Shown: positions 32,702 to 44,643, counted from the stretch's first letter. The stretch is DNA of 64,000 bases from a virus (IMGVR_UViG_3300013947_000021:64001-128000); one strand, 5' to 3'. Notes: generated from the sequence alone by a model not told the origin. Program-made: numbers and translations.

Positions 32702-33419
32702 TTAGTTCATCTTTTTATAATAAATGTATTGTGAATTTAAATTTAAAGCATCTTGTTTATAACTATCAGATCCAAGAGAAAATAAACTTTGACTAGAATT
32801 ATCTGTATATGCATTAGGATCAGTAGAACTAACATATTCTACTGTGCATTTATATAAATGAGTAATTCTACTAAATTTTCTTGTACTATATAAAGGATTT
32901 ACAAGAGAATATCTAAGTGGTGATGATATTGATGATATTTTACATGCTAATTCTTGTTGATCATTTTTAACTGTAATAGATGTTGAGGTAGGACTATACT
33001 TAATAACCCAATATCCACTTAATGCACTTATATTTCCATCTGATTCATAATATTTTTTTCCATTAAATGTTATACGACACATATCATCAAGGTTTACTGA
33101 TTTTGGTGATGACAAATATAAAGTTACTGATGATCCATTTGTTTGAGTATATGTACCAGATCCTACATATATGGCGCTATTACTACTTACAGAAATACCA
33201 TCACTGCCAGAACTCATATCTATAATATCATATGAATATTCAGAATTATCTTTAGTATAAGTATATTTAGCCCATTTATATAATTTACTAAATATTAATT
33301 TACTAGTACCATTTATATTTCCATAAGCAGATATTAATTCTTTATTACTTCCATTATTATTAATATAGAGGGAGGTTAATTGTTTTGACCCCCCCCCCAA
33401 TATTTGTATACATTGACAT
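32702..33419 (-). CDS. Poly-G cassette A1, fibre-tip-like, OFF (G10 at 33389-33398)
   Basis: AAGGAG RBS, then ATG TCA ATG TAT ACA AAT ATT and G10; body SKQLTSLYINNNG is in frame only with 3n G. Confidence 0.85.
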
Positions 33420-33451
33420 TTTAATAATCTCCTTTAACAAATATTAGGATT

Positions 33452-34238
33452 TTAATATGTAGTACCATTATATCTATAAACATATGCTGCAGCCATACTA
33501 GATGAATTATATGTACTACTAGAATATTTATAGTCAGCATTAAGTACAGAATCAGACGACGCAGTATAATCATTTTTATTTTGTGTTAGAATTGAACGTT
33601 GGAATCTATACCTCCATAGATAATATGGAGTATTGTAGTAACTTAATTCAAAATAATCATATCTATATTTTACATATAAATTTTCAGTTTGTGATGGGCT
33701 ATAGCGTAATAAATATAATAAATACCATGCGTAATGAGCATATGATGGAGCACTAGGAGCATATTGACTAGACCAGTCTATACATGTATTATCTCCTCTT
33801 TCACCAGCTAATATAGCATAATAACCACTATATCTACTATTTGTAGATCTATCTGTTAATTCAGTATATGATACTAATGATGGATTATTTAATGTAATCT
33901 TTTTTGTACTATGATTAAAATTATAAGATCTTGCTACATAAAATTTAGCATCTGTATTTTCATCACCACTATTAGATGTATATCTATAAATACGATAATC
34001 TTCAGTGGATAGTCCAGTACGCCTCATTTCCGTTTCTACAAGATCCCACATTTTATTTCCATCGGTTGTAAGTTTATATTCTCCATAATTATGATATGAA
34101 ATTCTTCCATATATTTCTTTCTTACTTCCATTTATATTAGCATAAGCATTATTTAATTGCTTATTTGTTCCATTTTTATTTATATAGAGGGAAGCAATTT
34201 GACGTTGCCCCCCCCCCAATATTACTGTACATTGACAT
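33452..34238 (-). CDS. Poly-G cassette A2, OFF (G10 at 34208-34217)
   Basis: RBS plus MSMYSNI-G10-QRQIASLYINKNG. Confidence 0.85.
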
Positions 34239-34328
34239 AATAATCTCCTTTAACACAACAAATATTGAGGTTATAAAAATATTTTTATAAAAAATAAATG
34301 GGATTACATATGTAATCCCATTAATCAT

Positions 34329-34475
34329 TTATGCCTGATAATCTTCGCCAGTGATCAACTTATACTCTTCTTCGGTAAGATTACCAGTTCTAACAAAGGC
34401 CTTAATATGAGCCTTCTTATAAATCTTCTTATCATAATACTTCTTAATAGTATTAAAATACTTAGACTGTGCCAT
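34329..34475 (-). CDS. xkdX: XkdX-family small protein (48 aa)
   Basis: Not in track. MAQSKYFNTIKKYYDKKIY...GNLTEEEYKLITGEDYQA, GGAGG RBS. Confidence 0.8.
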   Translation of the reverse strand: MAQSKYFNTIKKYYDKKIYKKAHIKAFVRTGNLTEEEYKLITGEDYQA

Positions 34476-34492
34476 AATTAATACCTCCAATA

Positions 34493-35056
34493 TTATTCAG
34501 TGGTAGTTCCAGAATCGGCAGATGGATCAGTCGTCGGATCCGTTTCAGAACCAGATTCATTACCTGTATCGGTTGTAGGATCAGTATTTTCATCTGTACC
34601 AGGATCAGGCATATCTGGATCAGTTTCACCAGTAAGATTCTCAAACAGAAGCTGTGCATTCTCTTCCTCAAGACGCTTAACCTCTTCTTCATGAGCAGTA
34701 AGCTTACCCATATAAACAGTAATCTTTCCATCCTTATGGCAGACAATGTCACCAAGAATAGAATAATCAGTCTTGGGATAATCTACATCTCCATAAACAT
34801 CGTTACCTTCAGTATCCTTACCAGTAACCTCATTCTGCCTAATAGAAAATTCTGCATCATCCTTAAAGTAAGTACAAACTTCTCCATAATTAGTATCAGC
34901 AAGGGTAATACGAAGCACATCTCTATACTGCTGATCAACCATAGCCTGTTTATCAAAAATGCAAGGCTCAGTCTCTACAGGATAAGCAGCAGTAGTAAAG
35001 AGCTTTTCATTACCATCTTTATCCTTAAATACTACTCTATTCATAATAGTACTCAT
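34493..35056 (-). CDS. Tail-fibre-associated protein (XkdW-like position, possible assembly chaperone)
   Basis: 187 aa, directly before XkdX; coiled segment ENAQLLFENLTGE shared with the 51-aa peptide. Confidence 0.55.
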   Translation of the reverse strand: MSTIMNRVVFKDKDGNEKLFTTAAYPVETEPCIFDKQAMVDQQYRDVLRITLADTNYGEVCTYFKDDAEFSIRQNEVTGKDTEGNDVYGDVDYPKTDYSILGDIVCHKDGKITVYMGKLTAHEEEVKRLEEENAQLLFENLTGETDPDMPDPGTDENTDPTTDTGNESGSETDPTTDPSADSGTTTE

Positions 35057-35154
35057 ATTTAATTTTATCCTCCTTAGAAAATAGATTTTTATCTAATTGT
35101 TTGATTAATATAATAATGTCTTTAGTAAGAAAAAATATTTATAATACCATTATT

Positions 35155-36001
35155 CTAGCCAATTAAATAATATGCAGAATTTATATTGTCTATAAGCGTT
35201 GTTGGTGATAATGATATAATTGGACGAATAAATATATTACTTATTGTAGCAATAATATCATGACCATTATAACTACTACCATTGTATGTTACTGTAAAAA
35301 CATAATTATCGCCATAATTACTACCAACATCACCACCAGGACTTCTCATCCAATAATAAGGTGCATAATCAGTTTTATCACTTTTTACTACTGATATTCT
35401 TGCTTCATCATCCATTGATGTTCTTCCAGCAGCTATTTTTAAAGCATCTAAATATGAAATACCTTCATCAGATAAATAACTATAAGAAGTAGAACTATAT
35501 CCAAGTTCAGAATATGATGGCAAGAATATATCTCTATTAATATTTATAATTTTTTTATTACTAAAAGAATAAGATTTTACACTAGTTTTAGTCAATCTGT
35601 TTCTAATAGATTCATCTAGTTTAGATCTATAATTATCTGTAGTTGAAACTTCTGCTGATAAATAATTATCTATAGTTGATGCATTATATTCTGAACTAGA
35701 TATGCTATTAAATGCTCTTAGTTCATACAAGTATCTTTGTAATAATAGTACAGTATCATTATTATAAGATGTACCTAATACTATAAAATCAGTAAGATTA
35801 TTAGAACCAGATAAAGTAGTATTAAACTTAATTATAGAACCAGCAGTTATACTACTTAAATATGCAAATTTCTTAAATATTTCTTTACTATTACCATTTA
35901 TATTTCCATATGCATTATTTAATGCTTTATTAGATCCATTATTATTTATATAGAGGGCGGCCAAAAGTTTCGACCCCCCCAATATTTATATGCATTGGCA
36001 T
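35155..36001 (-). CDS. Poly-G cassette A3 with DUF6273-like domain, OFF (G7 at 35974-35980)
   Basis: MPMHINI-G7 (track shows MPMHINIGGVETFGRPLYK then stop); body FIVLG...IFLPSYSELG...YWMRSP...IRPIISL. Confidence 0.85.
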
Positions 36002-36035
36002 AAGATAATGCCCTCCTTTACAAAATATTAGGGTT

Positions 36036-36853
36036 TTAAGCATAATATCCAAGATATTCATAATAATATCCATCACAATAATATGCTCGTGAACAAGTTT
36101 TAGGATAGTCATCACTATAATCAGAATCATCACTATACCAGCCTATTTTATATCCTGAATTACCACTAGTAAGATCAGTAACTACAGTACGGGAAGAACT
36201 ATATTTAGAAGCTCCAGTTGTAACTGTATTTAGACTAAGTTTACTATTATATTTAACTGTATTAAAATTAGTAGAATAGGATTTTGGTACTTTATAATAA
36301 ACACCATTTAACCTAAGTAATGCCCTATATTCAACATATGTATCATGATAAATGACTTCAAGTGATGAACCAGAAGATGAAACTTTAAATGCAATATTAT
36401 TATTAAATCCATAACCTGGAAAATAATATCCATCATATGAAGGATTAAGATAATAATAAATATCATTATCACTAGACTCAGTTCTATTGTAATCAAAATT
36501 TACACTATTATATCCAGAAAATTGTAATGATCCACTACTATTAGTATATGACATAGATGAATAAAGCGGTATAGTATCACTTGTACTAGAAAAACTTTTA
36601 GGACATAAATAATTTACAACTCCTTCATATGAATATCCAGTACTATCTTGCCAATATTGTATACTACATAATGTATATGAAGATACTGGATACTGTTTAT
36701 ACCAATAATATTTAGTAGCACTAAATATTACTTTACTGCTACCATTTATATTAGTATATATATTATTTAAAGCTTTAGAAGAGCCATCTTTATTTATATA
36801 GAGGGAGGCTAATTGTTTTTGCCCCCCCCCCCAATATTTGTATACATAGGCAT
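36036..36853 (-). CDS. Poly-G cassette A4, OFF (G11 at 36822-36832)
   Basis: MPMYTNI-G11; frame QKQLASLYINKDGSSKALNN is open from 36821 into the track ORF 36036..36554. Confidence 0.85.
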
Positions 36854-36900
36854 TTTTATTATACCTACCTTTCTTTACAAAATATTAGGGTTTAATATAT

Positions 36901-37348
36901 TTATGATAAAATTATATAAAATATGGTTAAGTTATCACAAAATGATGTAAATATATTTCCAGTCATAGTTCCAATATTACAAAATTCCCATTGACGAACA
37001 AATTCAGTAGATGAATTCCCTTTATTATGAAAATATGCACGTATATTTATATTTGTTGTACTAGCAGTTGAAGTTGATACAATTGGACTTGATAAGCAAA
37101 GTATTGTATTATTTTGTTTGTCATAAATAAAAGAATCATTTTCTGATATATAAGTATTTGTATACATTGTTGCAGATGATCCATAATAATCTTTTTCATA
37201 TTTATAATTAAAACCAAATAATACATTATTAGAAAAAGTTATAGACTCATTTTTTGAAAGAACTTTAGTTTGTATTTTTCCTATTAAGGAGCTACTGCCC
37301 CCCCCCCAAGGATTTGCATACGCCGTTAATATTAGCATAAAGACTCAT
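36901..37348 (-). CDS. Poly-G cassette B5, OFF (G10 at 37298-37307)
   Basis: RBS plus MSLYANINGVCKSL-GGG-Q-stop; G9 would join the SSSLIGKIQ body. Confidence 0.8.
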
Positions 37349-37379
37349 AATTAATAATCTCCTTTATAAATTTATTTTT

Positions 37380-37391
37380 TATATAAGTGTT
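37380..37391 (-). promoter_or_regulatory. AACA-N6-TA promoter of cassette B5
   Basis: AACACTTATATA. Confidence 0.65.
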
Positions 37392-37418
37392 ATAGATAAT
37401 GAAATTTATATAAAATTT

Positions 37419-37442
37419 CTCAGGTAGATTAATCTACCTGAG
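37419..37442. terminator. Terminator-like hairpin family CTC(A/G)GGTAGA...TCTACC(T/C)GAG
   Basis: Perfect inverted repeat; sister copies near 39399-39426 and 40087-40115. Confidence 0.65.
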
Positions 37443-37452
37443 ATTAAGTTAT

Positions 37453-38403
37453 TTAAGCATGATACCCATCATATATCCAATAATATCCATTAAATATATA
37501 AATACCATAACTTGAAGCGCTACCACCAGATGGCAAATAATCTTGTGCATAACTTGATGTATCCATTGTACCATAATAACCATTTGTATCATCGTAATAA
37601 TCTCGAGCATATGATATATTTATATTTTTACTAGAAAGTATAGAAGTTGTATCACTAGATGATACAGTAAATTTTATAAACCTCATAGAGTCAAAACCAA
37701 GACTACTAGAATTATAGGTAAGCACATTAATTTTTGATGATGATAATGAATTTGGTGCAAAGAATGATCTTGGTAAATAATGTGCAAAATTTAAATAATA
37801 TGATGAATTTAAATTAGGAGCATGAATTACTACTGTTGAATATGCATTTTTATTATAATCTCTAGGAATTACAAAGTATGCTTTTGTAATACTAATATTA
37901 AGCTGATCAAATGTATTTCCATTATCTGTTCCTGTATCAAAATACGCATTAGTAAATTTATATACAGTTTCGCGAGTATAATCTGTACCAGTGTTTGTTA
38001 ATGTAGGTGTAACCAAACCCCTATCAACAGTCATCAATCCAGTAGTACTATAATAACCAATACTAGATATTGATGGAGTAACACCGCCAAGAACTTTCAT
38101 ACGTCCATCTGATTCCGGTGTTGGAGATATAGAAGAATATACTTTCTTACTGTTCTGATATGCACTCTTTAAATATCTTATATCATAATGACATGTGCCA
38201 TCATCAACTTCATATTCACATAATTGCCATTTAGTAACTGGATAAGCTCTCCAATAGCAATATTTAGTAGCACTAAATATTTCTTTATTGGTTCCATTTA
38301 TATTAGCATATGCATTAGATAATGCAATATTACTACTATCTTTATTTATATAAAGGGAAGCAATTTGTTTCTGCCCCCCCCCAATATTTGTATATAATGA
38401 CAT
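37453..38403 (-). CDS. Poly-G cassette A6, ON (G9 at 38374-38382), 316-aa fibre-tip/receptor-binding-like protein
   Basis: AAGGAG RBS plus uninterrupted MSLYTNIGGGQKQIASLYINKDSSNIALSNAYANINGTNKEIF. Confidence 0.9.
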   Translation of the reverse strand: MSLYTNIGGGQKQIASLYINKDSSNIALSNAYANINGTNKEIFSATKYCYWRAYPVTKWQLCEYEVDDGTCHYDIRYLKSAYQNSKKVYSSISPTPESDGRMKVLGGVTPSISSIGYYSTTGLMTVDRGLVTPTLTNTGTDYTRETVYKFTNAYFDTGTDNGNTFDQLNISITKAYFVIPRDYNKNAYSTVVIHAPNLNSSYYLNFAHYLPRSFFAPNSLSSSKINVLTYNSSSLGFDSMRFIKFTVSSSDTTSILSSKNINISYARDYYDDTNGYYGTMDTSSYAQDYLPSGGSASSYGIYIFNGYYWIYDGYHA

Positions 38404-38487
38404 TTTAATAATCTCCTTTAACAAATAATGAGGTAAAATATAAGAAATATGAGATATGAAATTAATTTCATATCTCATTTAATATTT

Positions 38488-39330
38488 TTAACTGTATACT
38501 CCTAATATACTACCATTACCTGTAGGTGTACTAGCACTAGTATTTAATGCTATATTTCTTACTTGATAAGTAGTATAATTAGTATTAGCTTGTGCTACTA
38601 AAGCACCAGTTAATGTACCACCAGACTTAAGTAAATACTTATCTAATTCAGCAGCAACAGCTTTTCCACTTACTGGATTATCACTATTACTATTAAAAGT
38701 GCTATCTATTACAAGTCCACCATCTGGTATACTATCAATTTTGGTTCTATCAGAAACACTAATAAGCTTATCATCAGTAATATTATCAAGTTTCTTCTTA
38801 TCCTCTGCACTAATTAATCCTGGAGTTGTATCAGTAGCTTCAGGAGTATAATCTTTAGCAGCTTCAGCTAAATCACCAACAATCTCATATGCTCCACCAG
38901 TATAAAACATATGATATATCTTATTAATCTGAATATAATTTGCTTCTACATTAGTACCTCTATACTTAATATTCTTAGCTCCAGTAGCATTGATATTGAG
39001 TGTAGGAGATGCTGCAGTATTAGCATTAGTAAATTTTATATAAATATTATTTCCATCTTTTAATGCATAATTCTCACAGTCAACTGTTTTTGCAGCAGTA
39101 GCTCCAGCAGTAGTACATGTAAGAAGAGTATTTGTAGTATAATTAATAATAGTAGTATCTCCACCAGTAGAAGAACCACTACCAGAAATTTCTACTACAG
39201 CTCCAGCAGAATCTTTCATGTAAATTTTATGATTATCCCAGTCAGCTATAAGCTCTTTATTAGTAGCTAAACTAGCATTTGCATAAGATAAAGGCCTAAA
39301 TGGTATTCTAGCCGTAGCTTCATGACCCAT
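38488..39330 (-). CDS. Short tail fibre protein
   Basis: TCTTAGATAAKTV...KFTNANTAASPTLNINATGAKNI domain, GLISAEDKKKLD motif, C-terminal GGTLTG...VRNI...GSILGVYS. Confidence 0.75.
   Translation of the reverse strand: MGHEATARIPFRPLSYANASLATNKELIADWDNHKIYMKDSAGAVVEISGSGSSTGGDTTIINYTTNTLLTCTTAGATAAKTVDCENYALKDGNNIYIKFTNANTAASPTLNINATGAKNIKYRGTNVEANYIQINKIYHMFYTGGAYEIVGDLAEAAKDYTPEATDTTPGLISAEDKKKLDNITDDKLISVSDRTKIDSIPDGGLVIDSTFNSNSDNPVSGKAVAAELDKYLLKSGGTLTGALVAQANTNYTTYQVRNIALNTSASTPTGNGSILGVYS
38495..38629. repeat. 135-bp direct repeat, copy 1 (fibre C-terminus)
   Basis: Identical by eye to 43994..44128. Confidence 0.9.
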
Positions 39331-39476
39331 ACTATAACCTCCTTGATATAATTAAATTTTTATATAAATGTTATTAGAAGCAAATAATAGCCAAAAATAT
39401 CTCGGGTAGAAAAATCTACCCGAGATCTATCTATATGAATTCTAATTTATATAAATTAGAAAAATAATTTTATTTT

Positions 39477-40012
39477 TTACCAAGCTATATAATAATATTT
39501 TTCATTTGTATTATTATAAAGAGTAGCTTCTATATTATTATCACTATTATTACTATCATATGTACTATAAATATGCTGTAATGAAAAAAGTAATGTTCCA
39601 CCATCACTACAATCTGTAGTTGTTACTCTTGACGTATTTATTAATTGCAATTTATTATCTGAAATAGATACTGCGCTGTATTGAATTGGTCCGATAGTTT
39701 TATTACTACTTGATCCACTTCCATTACTCGACCATGAATCAACTCCGGATAAATAATAATATAGTGATGTAGAAGGTGTAACAACAAGAATAGATTGTGC
39801 AGAATCAGAAATTAATATTAATGTATTTATGTTAATGGGTAATATAATTTCTCTAGGAGTTGATGAAATACAACCTACGCTTCTATAACTTCTATTTCCA
39901 CTAACTTTTAAATCATAATATCCAGTTCCATCACCACTGTAATAACCGCTTACAATATTACTGCCCCCCCCAAGGATTTGCATACGCCATCAATATTAGC
40001 ATAAAGACTCAT
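39477..40012 (-). CDS. Poly-G cassette B7, OFF (G8 at 39964-39971)
   Basis: RBS plus MSLYANIDGVCKSL-G8; body SNIVSGYYSGDG...YYYIAW needs G9. Confidence 0.8.
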
Positions 40013-40045
40013 AATTAATAATCTCCTTTATAAATTTATTTTTTT

Positions 40046-40057
40046 TACATAATTGTT
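40046..40057 (-). promoter_or_regulatory. AACA-N6-TA promoter of cassette B7
   Basis: AACAATTATGTA. Confidence 0.65.
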
Positions 40058-40130
40058 ATAGATAAAGAAAATTATATAAAAATAATATCTCAGGTAGAAT
40101 TAATTCTACCTGAGAAAATATAAAATTTAA

Positions 40131-41040
40131 TTAACTATGATATCCATCATAAACCCACCAATATCCATTGAATATATAAATATACTCAAGTACAGAATTG
40201 GTAGCACTTGGCATATATCCATCAGTATAGTTAGATGTATCCATTATTCCATATCCACCTTCATAACTGCTAAATGTATCTCTGACATCTGCAACACCAT
40301 CGGAAACTAGTGTAACACTTTTTAATGAATGTAAGCCTTCTACGTTTTTAGAAGGATAATTATATACTTGCTGAAGTGAGTTTGGACTTGCTACATCATC
40401 TGGAAGATATACTCCAAATGTACTTCTTAAAGACCCATCATCATCTGGAACATAAAATCTTACTGTTGTATATGTATTTTTATTATATGATTTAGGAACT
40501 ACATAATATGCTTGTGTTATTTTTATATTAATTGTATCAAATATATTACCAGTACCATCATTTGCAGTAGATAAATACGCATTAGTAAATTTATATACAG
40601 TTTCGCGAGTATAATCTGTACCAGTGTTTGTTAATGTAGGTGTAACCCAACCCCTATCAACAGTCATCAATCCAGTAGTACTATAATAACCACCACTAGA
40701 TATTGATGGAGTAACACCGCCAAGAACTTTCATACGTCCATCTGATTCTACTGTTGAAGATATAGAAGAATATACTTTTTTACTGTTCTGATATGCACTC
40801 TTTAAATATCTTATATCATATTCATAATAACTACTTCCTGCACTACTGCAATGAACTAATTCCCATGCATTAACAGGATAAGCTTTCCAACAATAATATT
40901 TAGTAGCACTAAATATTTCTTTATTGGTTCCATTTATATTAGCATATGCATTAGATAATGCAATATTACTACTATCTTTATTTATATAAAGGGAAGCAAT
41001 TTGTTTCTGCCCCCCCCCCAATATTTGTATATATAGGCAT
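40131..41040 (-). CDS. Poly-G cassette A8, OFF (G10 at 41010-41019); mosaic paralog of A6
   Basis: MPIYTNI-G10-QKQIASLYINKDSSNIALSN. Confidence 0.85.
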
Positions 41041-41082
41041 AATATATAATCTCCTTTATTAAAATATTAGGATATATTTTAT

Positions 41083-41812
41083 CTAAATAGATTTATAAAA
41101 ATACTGTGTTCCAGACTCACTACTATACCAGTTTAAATAAAAATCTGATCCCAAATCAGTTCTATTACTTGATGAATATTCTGATTTATTAGTTGAATAT
41201 ACTTTTGTCTGACTTTGATATTGCATTAATCGCACAGTTCCGTTGCGTATTGTTCCATTACATCTTATTTCTATAGGATTGACCGTTATTTCTGAAATTC
41301 TATATCCATAAGCTCTCTGTGTATAACTTGTATCAGAATAATCTACACTAGAATCACTAAATTCAAAATTACTTTGTATTAAAGTCCACAATGGCACTGG
41401 TGCTATACTAGATAAGTATTGATAATGATATGTAGTGCCATTATAATATAATGAACTTGAGCCAACTGACTCTAGTAATTTATAATTATTAAGCGATATA
41501 GTTTTCTTAGATGTATTTATTGTGTATGATTGAGATACCCATAATCCTGCAGACTCATCTAATAGATATGCTAACTCTGATGTATAATCAGATCCTTCAC
41601 CAGACCATGTAGACACATCTGGTTGTGTTTCACTTGTACTAGAGCCATAATAAGTATATCTAATCCAGCCATAAAGTGGGGCAAATATTTGTTTACTTGC
41701 TCCATTTATATTAGCATAAGCACTATTTAGTACTTTTCTAGTACCATTATTATTCATATAAAGGGAGACAATTTGTCGTTGCCCCCCCCCCAATATTATT
41801 GTATATTGGCAT
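41083..41812 (-). CDS. Poly-G cassette A9, OFF (G10 at 41782-41791)
   Basis: AGGAGG RBS plus MPIYNNI-G10-QRQIVSLYMNNNG. Confidence 0.85.
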
Positions 41813-41847
41813 AACCATATACCTCCTATTAGGGATTTATAATATTT

Positions 41848-42535
41848 TTAATTAGCTCCAATATATTCATATTTATAATTACCATATTCTCCTTCAGAAT
41901 ATGCATTTCTATTTGTAGAAGTTAATGTAGTATCATATTCCCATCTATATCCATCAGATGTATTTTGTACATCCAATTGATAGGAATCAGAATAATTACA
42001 TTTAATATCACTATCTCCAATAATAGATTCAAAACTAGAAATTTCAAATAAATAGATATAGCTTGGAGCTGTATCTGATCTACTGCACTGATATTCTTTT
42101 ATTGGAGAAGGCTGATATTGAGATCGCGTACTAAATGGGTCTTCATATAAGAACAAATATCCAGAATATGTAGTTACTTTATAATATACAGTAGCAGCTC
42201 CCGATGTATGCTTTACTTCACTGTCAATACGTACATTATTATCATCACAACTTATACTATATACATAAGTGCTTGAGCTTAATGAATAATTACTAGCATA
42301 ATAAAGCGTGCCAAAATAATTTGTAAAAGAACCAGAACCCAAAGATTCTGATAATCCTTTTTTACTTACTTTTTTAATATATCTTTTCCATATATAAACT
42401 AATGCAGGGAAAATTTTCTTACTAGTGCCATTTATATTGCCATATAATGCATTAGTAGATCTTCTTGTACATTGTTATTTATATAGAGGGAAGCAATTTG
42501 TTTCTGCCCCCCCCAATATTACTGTACATTGGCAT
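41848..42535 (-). pseudogene. Poly-G cassette A10 (G8 at 42507-42514) with a second 1-nt frameshift near 42470
   Basis: MPMYSNI-G8-QKQIASLYINNN, then AAT GTA CAA where paralog A9 has AAT GGT ACT; all three tract phases meet a stop. Confidence 0.75.
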
Positions 42536-42588
42536 ATAAATGCCTCCTTTACAAAATATTAGGGTATTATTTTTTAATATAAAATTAA

Positions 42589-43417
42589 TTAAATTAATTG
42601 ATAATTTTTATCTATAACAGTAGATTTACTAAATGATAGTGCTGGACGAACATATATACCTGATACAATAGGATAAGCTTCAGCCCTATCGGCATCTTTA
42701 TTTTCTGAGTTACCATTATAATAGTTGGAATATGGAACATCTTTATTTGTACTATACTCATCTCTCAACCAATAATTTCTATAATATTCCTCTTCAGTTT
42801 TAAATTGCCTTGCTTTATATGGTACAGTTTTCCCAGTAGCTATCTTTAAAGCATCTAAATATGATTTACCCATTCCATATCCAAAACTGGCACCAAGACT
42901 CCAACCAACTTCTGCCATAGATAATAAAAATATATCTCTTAATTCTTTTATAACAGGATATGTACTATCTTCTATGCATTGTATCATTATTTCAGTCTTT
43001 ACCAATTTACTTCTAATAGATGAATCTAATTTAGATCTATAACTATCTGATGCTGAAGCATCTGCTGATAAATATTTATCTATATTAGAATCATAATAAT
43101 GAGGACTACCATTCGAATCAAATACTCTCGAATTACCATATGAATATCTTTGTAATAATAATATAGTATCATTATTATAAGATGTACCCAGAACTATAAA
43201 ATCTGTAAGTTTATTAGAACCAGATAAAGTAGTATTAAATTTAACTATAGAACCAATTGATATATCAGCTAATGGTGTTCCTAAATTAAATATTTCTTTA
43301 CTACTACCATTTATATTTCCATATGCATTAGATAATGCTTTAGATGAACCATCTTTATTAATATAGAGGGAGGTTAATTGTTTCGACCCCCCCCCCAATA
43401 TTTGTATATAATGACAT
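42589..43417 (-). CDS. Poly-G cassette A11 with DUF6273-like domain, OFF (G10 at 43387-43396)
   Basis: MSLYTNI-G10-SKQLTSLYINKDG; body paralogous to A3 (IFLLSMAEVG, YWLRD, VRPALSF). Confidence 0.85.
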
Positions 43418-43458
43418 TTTAATAATCTCCTTTAACAAATATTAGGGATATTAATTAT

Positions 43459-43873
43459 TTATGATAAAATCATATAGCTTAAATTCATAATTATACTTGA
43501 AAAGTTTGCATTTGGAGTAAATATTCCATTGTTAATATTACATATTGTTATATCATCAGATCCACTAGTAGATGTTGATGATGCAGCACTAATAGTTATA
43601 TTATTAGAAGAATCAACAGAAATTATTCCAATATAATTAGAGTTGTTGGTGCAATATGATCCTATAATTTTATTTGTATTTCTATTATAATAAATATTCA
43701 ATACATTACTTCCAATATAAGCAAATTGTAATATCAATATTATAGTAGTACCATTAAATGTAACACTATTATACCTATTAGTGACATTATATGTAGTTCC
43801 TATAATATAAGAACCATTATTACCCCCCCCCCAAATCTTTGGAGGCTCCATCAATATTAGCATAAATACTCAT
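43459..43873 (-). CDS. Poly-G cassette B12, OFF (G10 at 43823-43832)
   Basis: MSIYANIDGASKDL-GGG followed at once by TAA; G9 gives GGGNNGSYIIG. Confidence 0.8.
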
Positions 43874-43909: not shown

Positions 43910-43921
43910 TATTTAAATGTT
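43910..43921 (-). promoter_or_regulatory. AACA-N6-TA promoter of cassette B12
   Basis: AACATTTAAATA. Confidence 0.65.
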
Positions 43922-43986: not shown

Positions 43987-44643
43987 TTACGAATATACTC
44001 CTAATATACTACCATTACCTGTAGGTGTACTAGCACTAGTATTTAATGCTATATTTCTTACTTGATAAGTAGTATAATTAGTATTAGCTTGTGCTACTAA
44101 AGCACCAGTTAATGTACCACCAGACTTATCGAGTTTATTTGCTAATGCAGTTGTAGTAGCATAAGTACTATGAGTATGATTAGTATCAGACTTTCCTGCA
44201 AGTGCAGCAGCAATTACTTTATTCTGAACAGGATTCTCTGAAGTAGTAGACATTGCAGTATCACATTCTACTTTACCTCCTCCACCACCTTCATACCATG
44301 CAGACCAGCTAGTACCATTATACTCACGATATGCGATAAGTCTAGAATTAGTTCCATCTGCAGTAGTACCGAGTTTTTCAGCTTCCTGAATAATATACTT
44401 AGAATAATTTGTTGCCGAAGAACTATTATCAGGATCAGGAGCATATACTCTAAGAACCCATGCACAAGCACTGCTGCAAGTTAATGGCGTAGTAGTAGTA
44501 CCAATGAATATATACATACCTGTTTCAAGCACAGTATCAAGTAATGTAGAATTAGATGATAAACTGCCAAGTAACACAGATCCATCAAGATAACCATTTT
44601 GAGCAAGTTTTGATATACCTGCTATTATTTTAGGTTGTGCCAT
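43987..44643 (-). CDS. Short tail fibre protein with pyocin-knob-like domain
   Basis: LETGMY...LRVY...IIQEA...YREYNGTSWSAW; SENPVQNKVI; C-terminus identical to 38488..39330. Confidence 0.7.
   Translation of the reverse strand: MAQPKIIAGISKLAQNGYLDGSVLLGSLSSNSTLLDTVLETGMYIFIGTTTTPLTCSSACAWVLRVYAPDPDNSSSATNYSKYIIQEAEKLGTTADGTNSRLIAYREYNGTSWSAWYEGGGGGKVECDTAMSTTSENPVQNKVIAAALAGKSDTNHTHSTYATTTALANKLDKSGGTLTGALVAQANTNYTTYQVRNIALNTSASTPTGNGSILGVYS
43994..44128. repeat. 135-bp direct repeat, copy 2
   Basis: Identical by eye to 38495..38629. Confidence 0.9.

Follow-up and report, generated by a model that had tools for sequence, protein, structure and literature searches.

Within a 64,000-nucleotide (nt) stretch of viral DNA (IMGVR_UViG_3300013947_000021:64001-128000; hereafter, the window, with positions counted from its first letter), we found nine paralogous genes, termed type A cassettes, in which a poly-G tract close to the start codon is predicted to be shared by two RNA hairpins. 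In hairpin 1, an upstream arm pairs with codons 6-7 and the first three to four G residues of the tract, leaving the Shine-Dalgarno (SD) sequence and the AUG within a loop of 29-42 nt; in hairpin 2, the other G residues pair with a pyrimidine run further downstream—such that the entire tract would be double-stranded in the mRNA. We read hairpin 1 as a predicted, lineage-specific and selectively maintained RNA structure that acts in cis as a translation-initiation attenuator or coupler, and assign this reading a probability of about 0.4. Taken as a whole, hairpin 1 is a well-supported feature of sequence and predicted structure, found in one lineage and by computation.

The window comes from a virus record of 221,227 bp, the G+C content of which is 29.6%. 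The virus is a human-gut jumbo phage that encodes, among other products, a 2,935-amino-acid protein with a tail-lysozyme domain and split multisubunit RNA polymerase (RNAP) beta-like proteins, the nearest relatives of which (~32% identity) belong to Listeria, Staphylococcus and Bacillus jumbo phages of the PBS1/AR9 group. No close relatives were found among the phage GenBank collection by either DNA or protein search, and a search of IMG/VR returned one relative. All 12 runs of at least seven G or C residues in the whole genome lie within a single minus-strand array (window 33389-43832), made up of 12 tandem poly-G cassettes: nine of type A and three of type B. In the type A cassettes, which are tail-fibre-tip genes, the tract starts 21 nt past the ATG within the encoded pattern M-[SP]-x-Y-x-N-I-GGG, and is followed by a conserved segment of ~35 residues and then by unrelated C-terminal domains, two of which are DUF6273. 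The tract of the type B cassettes starts ~50 nt past the ATG.

The initial annotation of the window had claimed that every type A cassette carries an upstream element complementary to the start of the tract, and we recovered this element in 9/9 cassettes. It consists of four pyrimidines (Y4) followed by AAUA(UU), sits 3-5 nt 5' of the SD sequence and is complementary to AAUAUU-GGGG, that is, codons 6-7 (AAU AUU) plus the beginning of the tract. The element reads CCCUAAUAUU in A3, A4, A10 and A11, CCUCAAUAUU in A2 and UCCUAAUAUU in A1 and A8. In A11, CCCUAAUAUUUGU (43447-43435) faces ACAAAUAUUGGGG (43405-43393) across a 29-nt loop, exactly as had been described. The variants of A2 (CCUCAAUAUU) and A9 (CCCUAAUA, shortened to 8 bp) likewise keep the pairing in their minimum-energy folds, and the single U-U mismatch reported for A6 (CCUCAUUAUU), the sole in-frame cassette with 9 G, was confirmed. 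The positions of these features, all on the minus strand, are as follows.

43438-43447, minus strand: 5' arm of A11 (CCCUAAUAUU), extending to 43435 as UGU; minimum-energy partner at 43393-43402
43393-43402, minus strand: 3' arm of A11 (AAUAUUGGGG), i.e., the Asn-Ile codons plus the first four G; tract at 43387-43396, ATG at 43417-43415
43365-43373, minus strand: downstream pyrimidine run of A11 (CCUCCCUCU), rare codons ACC-UCC-CUC, pairing with G5-G10 in hairpin 2
42555-42564, minus strand: 5' arm of A10 (CCCUAAUAUU); 3' arm at 42511-42520, tract at 42507-42514 (8 G), pyrimidine run at 42485-42493
41827-41834, minus strand: shortened 5' arm of A9 (CCCUAAUA), adjoining the SD sequence; 3' arm at 41788-41795, tract at 41782-41791
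41063-41072, minus strand: 5' arm of A8 (UCCUAAUAUU); 3' arm at 41016-41025, tract at 41010-41019
38424-38433, minus strand: 5' arm of A6 (CCUCAUUAUU); 3' arm at 38379-38388, tract at 38374-38382 (9 G), coding sequence at 37453-38403
36881-36890, minus strand: 5' arm of A4 (CCCUAAUAUU); 3' arm at 36829-36838, tract at 36822-36832 (11 G), inner helix UAGGUAU/AUGCCUA over the AUG
36024-36033, minus strand: 5' arm of A3 (CCCUAAUAUU), 2 nt past the A4 stop; 3' arm at 35977-35986, tract at 35974-35980 (7 G)
34261-34270, minus strand: 5' arm of A2 (CCUCAAUAUU); 3' arm at 34214-34223, tract at 34208-34217
33440-33449, minus strand: 5' arm of A1 (UCCUAAUAUU), 2 nt past the A2 stop; 3' arm at 33395-33404, tract at 33389-33398

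The stem proposed by the initial annotation is the minimum-energy structure in all nine type A cassettes (RNAfold; -10.2 to -22.6 kcal/mol), which are paralogs and not nine independent observations. It comprises 6-9 A-U pairs plus 3-4 G-C or G-U pairs. Compared with dinucleotide shuffles, the nine z-scores were -3.7, -2.0, -3.0, -4.4, -3.5, 0.0 (A8), -2.5, -4.0 and -3.6—eight of the cassettes fold 2-4.4 standard deviations better than their shuffles, and A8, with the weakest stem, folds no better. Pairing between the two flanks of the ribosome-binding site amounts to -11.5 to -18.1 kcal/mol, whereas 189 other genes of the same genome average -5.9 kcal/mol (standard deviation, 2.9), which places the type A cassettes in the top 0-6%; segments spanning -45 to +40 fold at -10 to -23 kcal/mol versus a genome mean of -9.5 kcal/mol. 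All arms but one contain at least one G-U wobble, and the same sequence folds weakly as single-stranded DNA (-2 to -10 kcal/mol), with the antisense strand weaker than the sense strand because G-T pairs become A-C mismatches. Owing to the G-U pairs, folding is better for the sense than for the antisense strand, and for RNA than for DNA. Together, the wobble pairs and the weak DNA fold favor a role of the predicted stem at the RNA level. The element has no counterpart in the three type B cassettes and did not turn up 5' of other genes in this genome, and an Rfam search of the leaders gave no match, with a terminator-like hairpin 5' of A2 as the only sub-threshold one.

When the tract was folded together with 70 nt of flanking sequence at either end, upstream pairing was confined to the first three or four G residues (probability, 0.65-1.0), and the rest paired (probability ~1) with a pyrimidine run located ~13 nt downstream, which reads (A/G)CCUCCCUC, GCUUCCC or GUCUCCC and lies, for the type A cassettes, within window 33365-43373. 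The initial annotation had thus caught one half of the predicted structure; the other half is this second hairpin. The codons forming the downstream run, ACC/GCC-UCC-CUC, are rare (8%/3%, 3.8% and 6.1% of their respective codon families genome-wide) and near-universal at this position in the 46 distinct cassettes that we collected. In an alignment of these cassettes, 89% of the cells in hairpin 2 pair, one pair occurs as CG (11), UA (7) and UG (4), and the covariation score exceeds that of 497 of 500 shuffles—a signal to which linked protein haplotypes (S..T versus Q..A) could add. Hairpin 2 is kept across the whole family, outgroups included. The pairing probabilities of G1-G4 are alike for tracts of 7-11 G.

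To place hairpin 1 in a broader context, we gathered relatives from IMG/VR and from ENA/Logan gut metagenomes (including Hadza samples), which yielded 46 distinct type A leaders. Forty-two of these have AAUAUU before the tract and are referred to as the hairpin clade. In the covariation check that the initial annotation had called for, 38 of the 42 leaders keep the 5' arm and the one-sided changes preserve the pairs, with no change on both sides. Across these leaders, 94% of the cells in hairpin 1 pair, as opposed to 47-63% when the partner is slid. Y4 occurs in eight variants (CCCU, CCUC, UCCU, UUCU, CUCU, CCCC, CUUC and UCUC), never with a purine, and the inferred substitutions, at least seven in number, are transitions throughout and leave G-C or G-U pairs in place. 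Changes elsewhere in the arm are limited to one A>G giving a G-U pair and an A>U mismatch in one lineage (that of A6); in addition, two lineages are shortened to 8 bp, and one has the perfect complement CCCCAAUA. No extension of the 5' arm compensates for the codon preceding AAU AUU, which varies among ACA, AGU, AAU, AUA and GUA. Mean pairwise identity is 0.92 in the AAUAUU arm, 0.78 in the SD sequence, 0.51 in the linker, 0.50 in the 5' flank and 0.41 in the SD-AUG spacer, and the variable neighboring columns carry transversions where the Y4 columns carry transitions only. This pattern of sequence conservation speaks for selection acting on the arm, and not for plain homogenization of the leader. 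The outgroup lineages (the type of IMG/VR UViG_3300013426_000015, equivalent to L001/L018; L017; and L022) read AACAUU, AAUCUU, AAUAUC or similar before the tract, and their arrays, devoid of the arm, keep length-variable poly-G tracts. Hairpin 1 is therefore lineage-specific and dispensable for phase variation or slippage; it is an addition in one clade, with hairpin 2 belonging to the whole family.

Several related arrays from human-gut metagenomes (L019, L022, L024, L025, L031, L032, L033, L036 and L037) hold 1-14 poly-G cassettes amid small genes of the XkdX family (PF09693), with cassette order and content varying between phages. At L024:12865, a type B-like leader and N-terminus are joined to a type A body at the tract, a chimera that suggests recombination at the G run.

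For hairpin 1 to form, the 5' arm has to be transcribed. The motif AAC[A/T]-N6-TA(A) precedes ~50 genes of the phage, ~40 nt 5' of the ATG, and matches the late-promoter consensus of phage AR9, AACA-N6-T[A/G], the last base of which is the transcription start site (PMC5312081). We built a late-promoter matrix on 48 sites of the genome (training-set median, 14.5 bits). The leaders of the three type B cassettes scored 15.5-17.8 bits, and no promoter of this kind was detected for type A, with a maximum of 4.1 bits in the 140 nt 5' of any type A tract. Each type B cassette, like the two non-variable genes at 38488-39330 and 34493-35056, is preceded by a terminator and then a promoter. By comparison, seven of the nine type A cassettes start 2-31 nt past the stop codon of the preceding open reading frame (ORF) without an intervening terminator, and there are no terminators within B3-A11-A10-A9-A8 or within B1-A4-A3. 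Given the short spacing, and without either a promoter of their own or a terminator in between, the 5' arm is therefore transcribed within the mRNA in these seven cassettes, which lie inside late operons that have a type B cassette at their head. The transcription signals are listed below.

43910-43921, minus strand: late promoter AACA-N6-TA of B3 (within the 15.5-17.8-bit range of type B), heading the unit B3-A11-A10-A9-A8
start 40057 (B2) and start 37391 (B1), minus strand: equivalent late promoters according to the same late-promoter matrix
40115-40088, minus strand: terminator of the B3-A11-A10-A9-A8 unit
38478-38449, minus strand: terminator-like hairpin 5' of A6
34322-34297, minus strand: terminator-like hairpin 5' of A2

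Only tracts of 3n G are in frame, which leaves A6 (9 G) as the one cassette that is ON in the window. The tracts are genuinely polymorphic in nature: a 2.5-kb metagenome contig (L016:1-2536), near-identical to the A11-A8 segment (window 40980-43450), has tracts of 10/11/11/12 G versus 10/8/10/10 G, such that A8 (12 G) would be in frame in that sample, and other cassettes differ by one G between samples, e.g., 9 versus 10 G. In the hairpin clade, the modal tract has 10 G (49/77). A10 (window 41848-42514) has an extra 1-nt deletion just after LYINNN, also present in L016, and no tract length restores its full-length frame; it is probably a decaying cassette. At tracts of 3n+1 residues (10 G), the AU-UG junction where the tract begins creates a UUG that shares the frame of the long ORF (window 33398, 34217, 41019, 41791 and 43396). 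Considered as an alternative start codon, this UUG has no SD sequence at a usable distance, and its use is doubtful.

The reading that we put forward for hairpin 1 follows from the position of its arms. Because they lie at about -31 to -18 and +13 to +25 relative to the AUG, a 30S subunit would have to open the stem in order to initiate, and the stem may thereby lower the initiation rate of minor virion proteins—a plausible arrangement for low-copy fibre-tip proteins encoded on late polycistronic mRNAs. Moreover, 30 of the 38 arms begin 2-17 nt past the stop codon of a long upstream ORF, so a ribosome terminating there could open the stem, and termination on the preceding ORF may in this way be coupled to initiation on the next cistron. 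Inner helices of the GGCAU/AUGCC type cover the AUG in A3, A4, A9 and A10, and are weak in A1, A6 and A11. In these loop-internal helices (window 35999-36015, 36851-36872, 42533-42548 and 41810-41830), the AUG and codon 2 are predicted to pair with the SD region at its 3' end, as GGCAU/AUGCC or UAGGUAU/AUGCCUA. Many relatives show a leader variant, AAAGAAAGGUAGGUAU, together with AUG-CCU-AUG.

A number of observations weigh against this reading. The SD sequence and the AUG sit in the loop, outside the outer stem, and arm strength shows no link with the in- or out-of-frame state (Mann-Whitney p 0.72; Fisher p 0.16). The arm has been lost in four cassettes within the clade, and the three outgroup lineages have no complementary upstream element, their whole tract pairing downstream instead. 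There is no two-sided covariation in hairpin 1 among the 38 leaders (shuffles reach the observed value 249/500 times), in a test that an invariant 3' arm deprives of any power; the evidence thus consists of conservation and one-sided changes in cassettes that are paralogs, possibly exchanging sequence. Strict coupling is at odds with in-frame cassettes that can come after out-of-frame ones in L019, and with the position of A6, 55 nt past the upstream stop. A2 and A6 also follow terminator-like hairpins without a recognizable promoter, and their transcription would require either leaky terminators or another promoter type. The initial annotation had viewed the hairpin as a second control layer. 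What holds of that view is that the stem is genuine, maintained beyond the neighboring non-coding positions and altered in ways that fit RNA pairing; the control role itself stays putative, considering the absence of two-sided covariation (in the test without power), the variable tracts of the arm-less outgroups and an arm strength that is independent of the ON/OFF state. Tract instability is not caused by the hairpin.

Ordered by probability, attenuation or coupling is followed by a passenger origin of the arm, transcriptional slippage, masking or stabilization of the mRNA, a DNA-level role and, lastly, a promoter or protein-binding site. That hairpin 1 is functionless, with the arm a mere passenger in a leader that was duplicated, and its copies similar because of recent duplication, gene conversion or templated (quasi-palindrome) mutation, is unlikely, if the foremost of these alternatives. 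AAUAUU reads the same as its reverse complement, pyrimidines in any order can pair with G, and the 3' arm corresponds to the commonest Asn and Ile codons; all carriers fall in one clade of closely related phages; the perfect complement in one lineage is what template switching would yield; and the absent two-sided covariation, the arm-less outgroups, the four losses and an A8 stem equal to its shuffles all fit as well. However, the SD-AUG spacer, which lies between the arm and the conserved coding start, is far more diverged (0.41, with transversions) than the arm (0.92), and this argues against gene conversion, which would homogenize both; the pair-keeping nature of every Y4 substitution points in the same direction. 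We consider it improbable that a nascent stem, flush with and then invading the upstream end of the rG:dC hybrid, stimulates transcriptional slippage by the phage RNAP such that some out-of-frame transcripts become in-frame. Geometrically the fit is good, since the AAUAUU stem reaches exactly as far as G1 and Y4 can pull out G1-G4, and the modal 10-G tract is one deletion away from the in-frame 9 G. Yet arm-less relatives keep similar tracts, runs of 9-11 G may slip unaided, the 10-G mode may be a mutational equilibrium, and the AU-rich stem with its 29-42-nt loop differs from that of the known case, which is compact, GC-rich and of the terminator type.

Next in order, and improbable as well, both hairpins could mask the G run so that ribosomes do not take it for an SD sequence, or shield the internal cistrons of the mRNA against nucleases, and have no part in regulating initiation as such. 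Predicted pairing extends over the whole tract (probability ~1) in every cassette, in the outgroups via hairpin 2; rare C-rich codons are selected downstream; and, in a genome that uses strong AAGGAG-type SD sequences, a G run 22 nt past the AUG could bind the anti-SD sequence. Hairpin 2 alone, however, pairs the whole tract in the outgroups, making hairpin 1 unneeded, and a translating ribosome would unwind both stems anyway. A narrower version of the slippage explanation, in which the hairpin is a programmed stimulator that makes the phage multisubunit RNAP delete 1 nt in part of the 10-G 'OFF' transcripts, strikes us as a long shot. If it were true, DNA-silent cassettes would be expressed at a low set level, and each virion population would carry a graded mix of fibre tips in addition to the heritable DNA switch. 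Alternatively, the structure might act on the DNA itself, as a hairpin or cruciform that forms in single strands and raises or limits replication slippage, or marks a recombination boundary between cassettes, and the inverted repeat does adjoin a tract that differs between samples (8 versus 11, 10 versus 11 and 10 versus 12 G between the window and L016); still, the DNA fold is weak and weaker on the antisense strand, every arm but one keeps a wobble rather than a perfect CCCC, and arm-less relatives also show variable tracts, which makes this proposal very unlikely. Least probable of all, the 5' arm could be a promoter or protein-binding site, with the RNA starting within or after the arm and hence no hairpin. 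A2, A3 and A4 read AACC-N6-TT, a distant echo of AAC[A/T]-N6-TA, and A2 and A6, behind terminator-like hairpins, would need a promoter; against this, the register of the arm scored -6 to -20 bits in the late-promoter matrix (versus 15.5-17.8 bits at type B), AAC is wholly absent from six of the nine arms, and the element is neither found before other genes nor similar to the early-type TATATTATAAT. As a late promoter specifically, the arm is ruled out by the scores of the 48-site matrix together with the absence of the motif before other genes.

The only other enriched upstream motif is TTTTGTAA after terminator T-runs, followed ~20 nt on by a TATATTATAAT-like sequence, e.g., at G000 27046, 35990, 122561, 124423 and 131003 (minus strand, outside the array). 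This pair is possibly a class of early (virion RNAP) promoters, by analogy with the AR9 early motif. The 5' arm, tried as an early promoter, bears no resemblance to TTTTGTAA ... TATATTATAAT.

Returning to attenuation or coupling, the closest parallels are the RBS-enclosing hairpins (RBS, ribosome-binding site) that act as translational operators or couplers in phage polycistronic mRNAs, such as those at the MS2 lysis and replicase starts. As in MS2-type hairpins, the stem described here joins the intercistronic leader with the early coding region of its own gene, would have to open for initiation and is reachable by ribosomes terminating upstream; unlike them, it is closed by the first G residues of a hypermutable homopolymer, holds the SD sequence and AUG in its loop, recurs on nine paralogous cistrons and is a predicted structure. 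In the IS630 element of Roseiflexus, a stem-loop with a 6-bp GC-rich stem and a 4-nt loop stimulates transcriptional slippage with a 1-nt deletion (PMC5009743), and there, as in the type A cassettes, the 3' end of the nascent stem adjoins the 5' edge of the slippery run, with a 1-nt deletion that would put a 10-G cassette in frame. The stem of the type A cassettes, in contrast, is not a compact GC-rich terminator-like stem-loop: it is AU-rich, has a 29-42-nt loop and overlaps the run, and the polymerase would be the non-virion RNAP of a jumbo phage. Pairing of a C/U-rich RNA with a length-variable G repeat near a translation start is likewise a property of the Helicobacter pylori small RNA RepG, which acts in trans on such a repeat in the 5' untranslated region of tlpB with an outcome that depends on repeat length (PMC8295292); in the type A cassettes, conversely, the pairing partner acts in cis, the G run belongs to the coding sequence and pairing is predicted to change little between 7 and 11 G. 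Finally, in Campylobacter phages of the Fletchervirus group, the genes for receptor-binding proteins are described as carrying hypermutable poly-G tracts (Sorensen et al. 2021, Cell Rep 35:109214, cited in PMC10877375). So far as that description goes, the two systems share an intragenic poly-G tract near the 5' end of tail-fibre-type genes as an ON/OFF switch, and differ in phage group and host, and in the twelve tandem cassettes found here as compared with a few scattered genes. As in phase-variable poly-G contingency genes generally, the length of the G run in the type A cassettes sets the reading frame and differs between natural populations. We know of no report of flanking RNA structure for the Fletchervirus poly-G tracts.

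Phage poly-G switches, pairing of C/U-rich RNA with G repeats in trans and RBS-enclosing hairpins are already known. What appears to be new is their combination—a predicted cis double hairpin that shares a hypermutable tract as a strand, encloses the RBS and is repeated on many cassettes—which we did not find described in the literature. If the stem acts as proposed, phage homopolymer switches would be embedded in dedicated RNA structure instead of being bare slippery runs, and the mRNA would keep the whole G tract double-stranded at any length, tied to the RBS of each tail-fibre-tip cassette. Stochastic host-range switching would thereby gain a translational (or transcriptional-slippage) layer in an abundant, uncultured group of human-gut jumbo phages related to AR9/PBS1. 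The 70-nt leader also lends itself to simple tests in a reporter.

A further observation concerns the genes upstream of the cassettes. Two otherwise different genes, encoding products of 280 and 218 amino acids, have a C-terminal sequence (...YQVRNIALNTSASTPTGNGSILGVY) in common (window 38488-38625 and 43987-44125), which could be an attachment module for interchangeable type A/B proteins.

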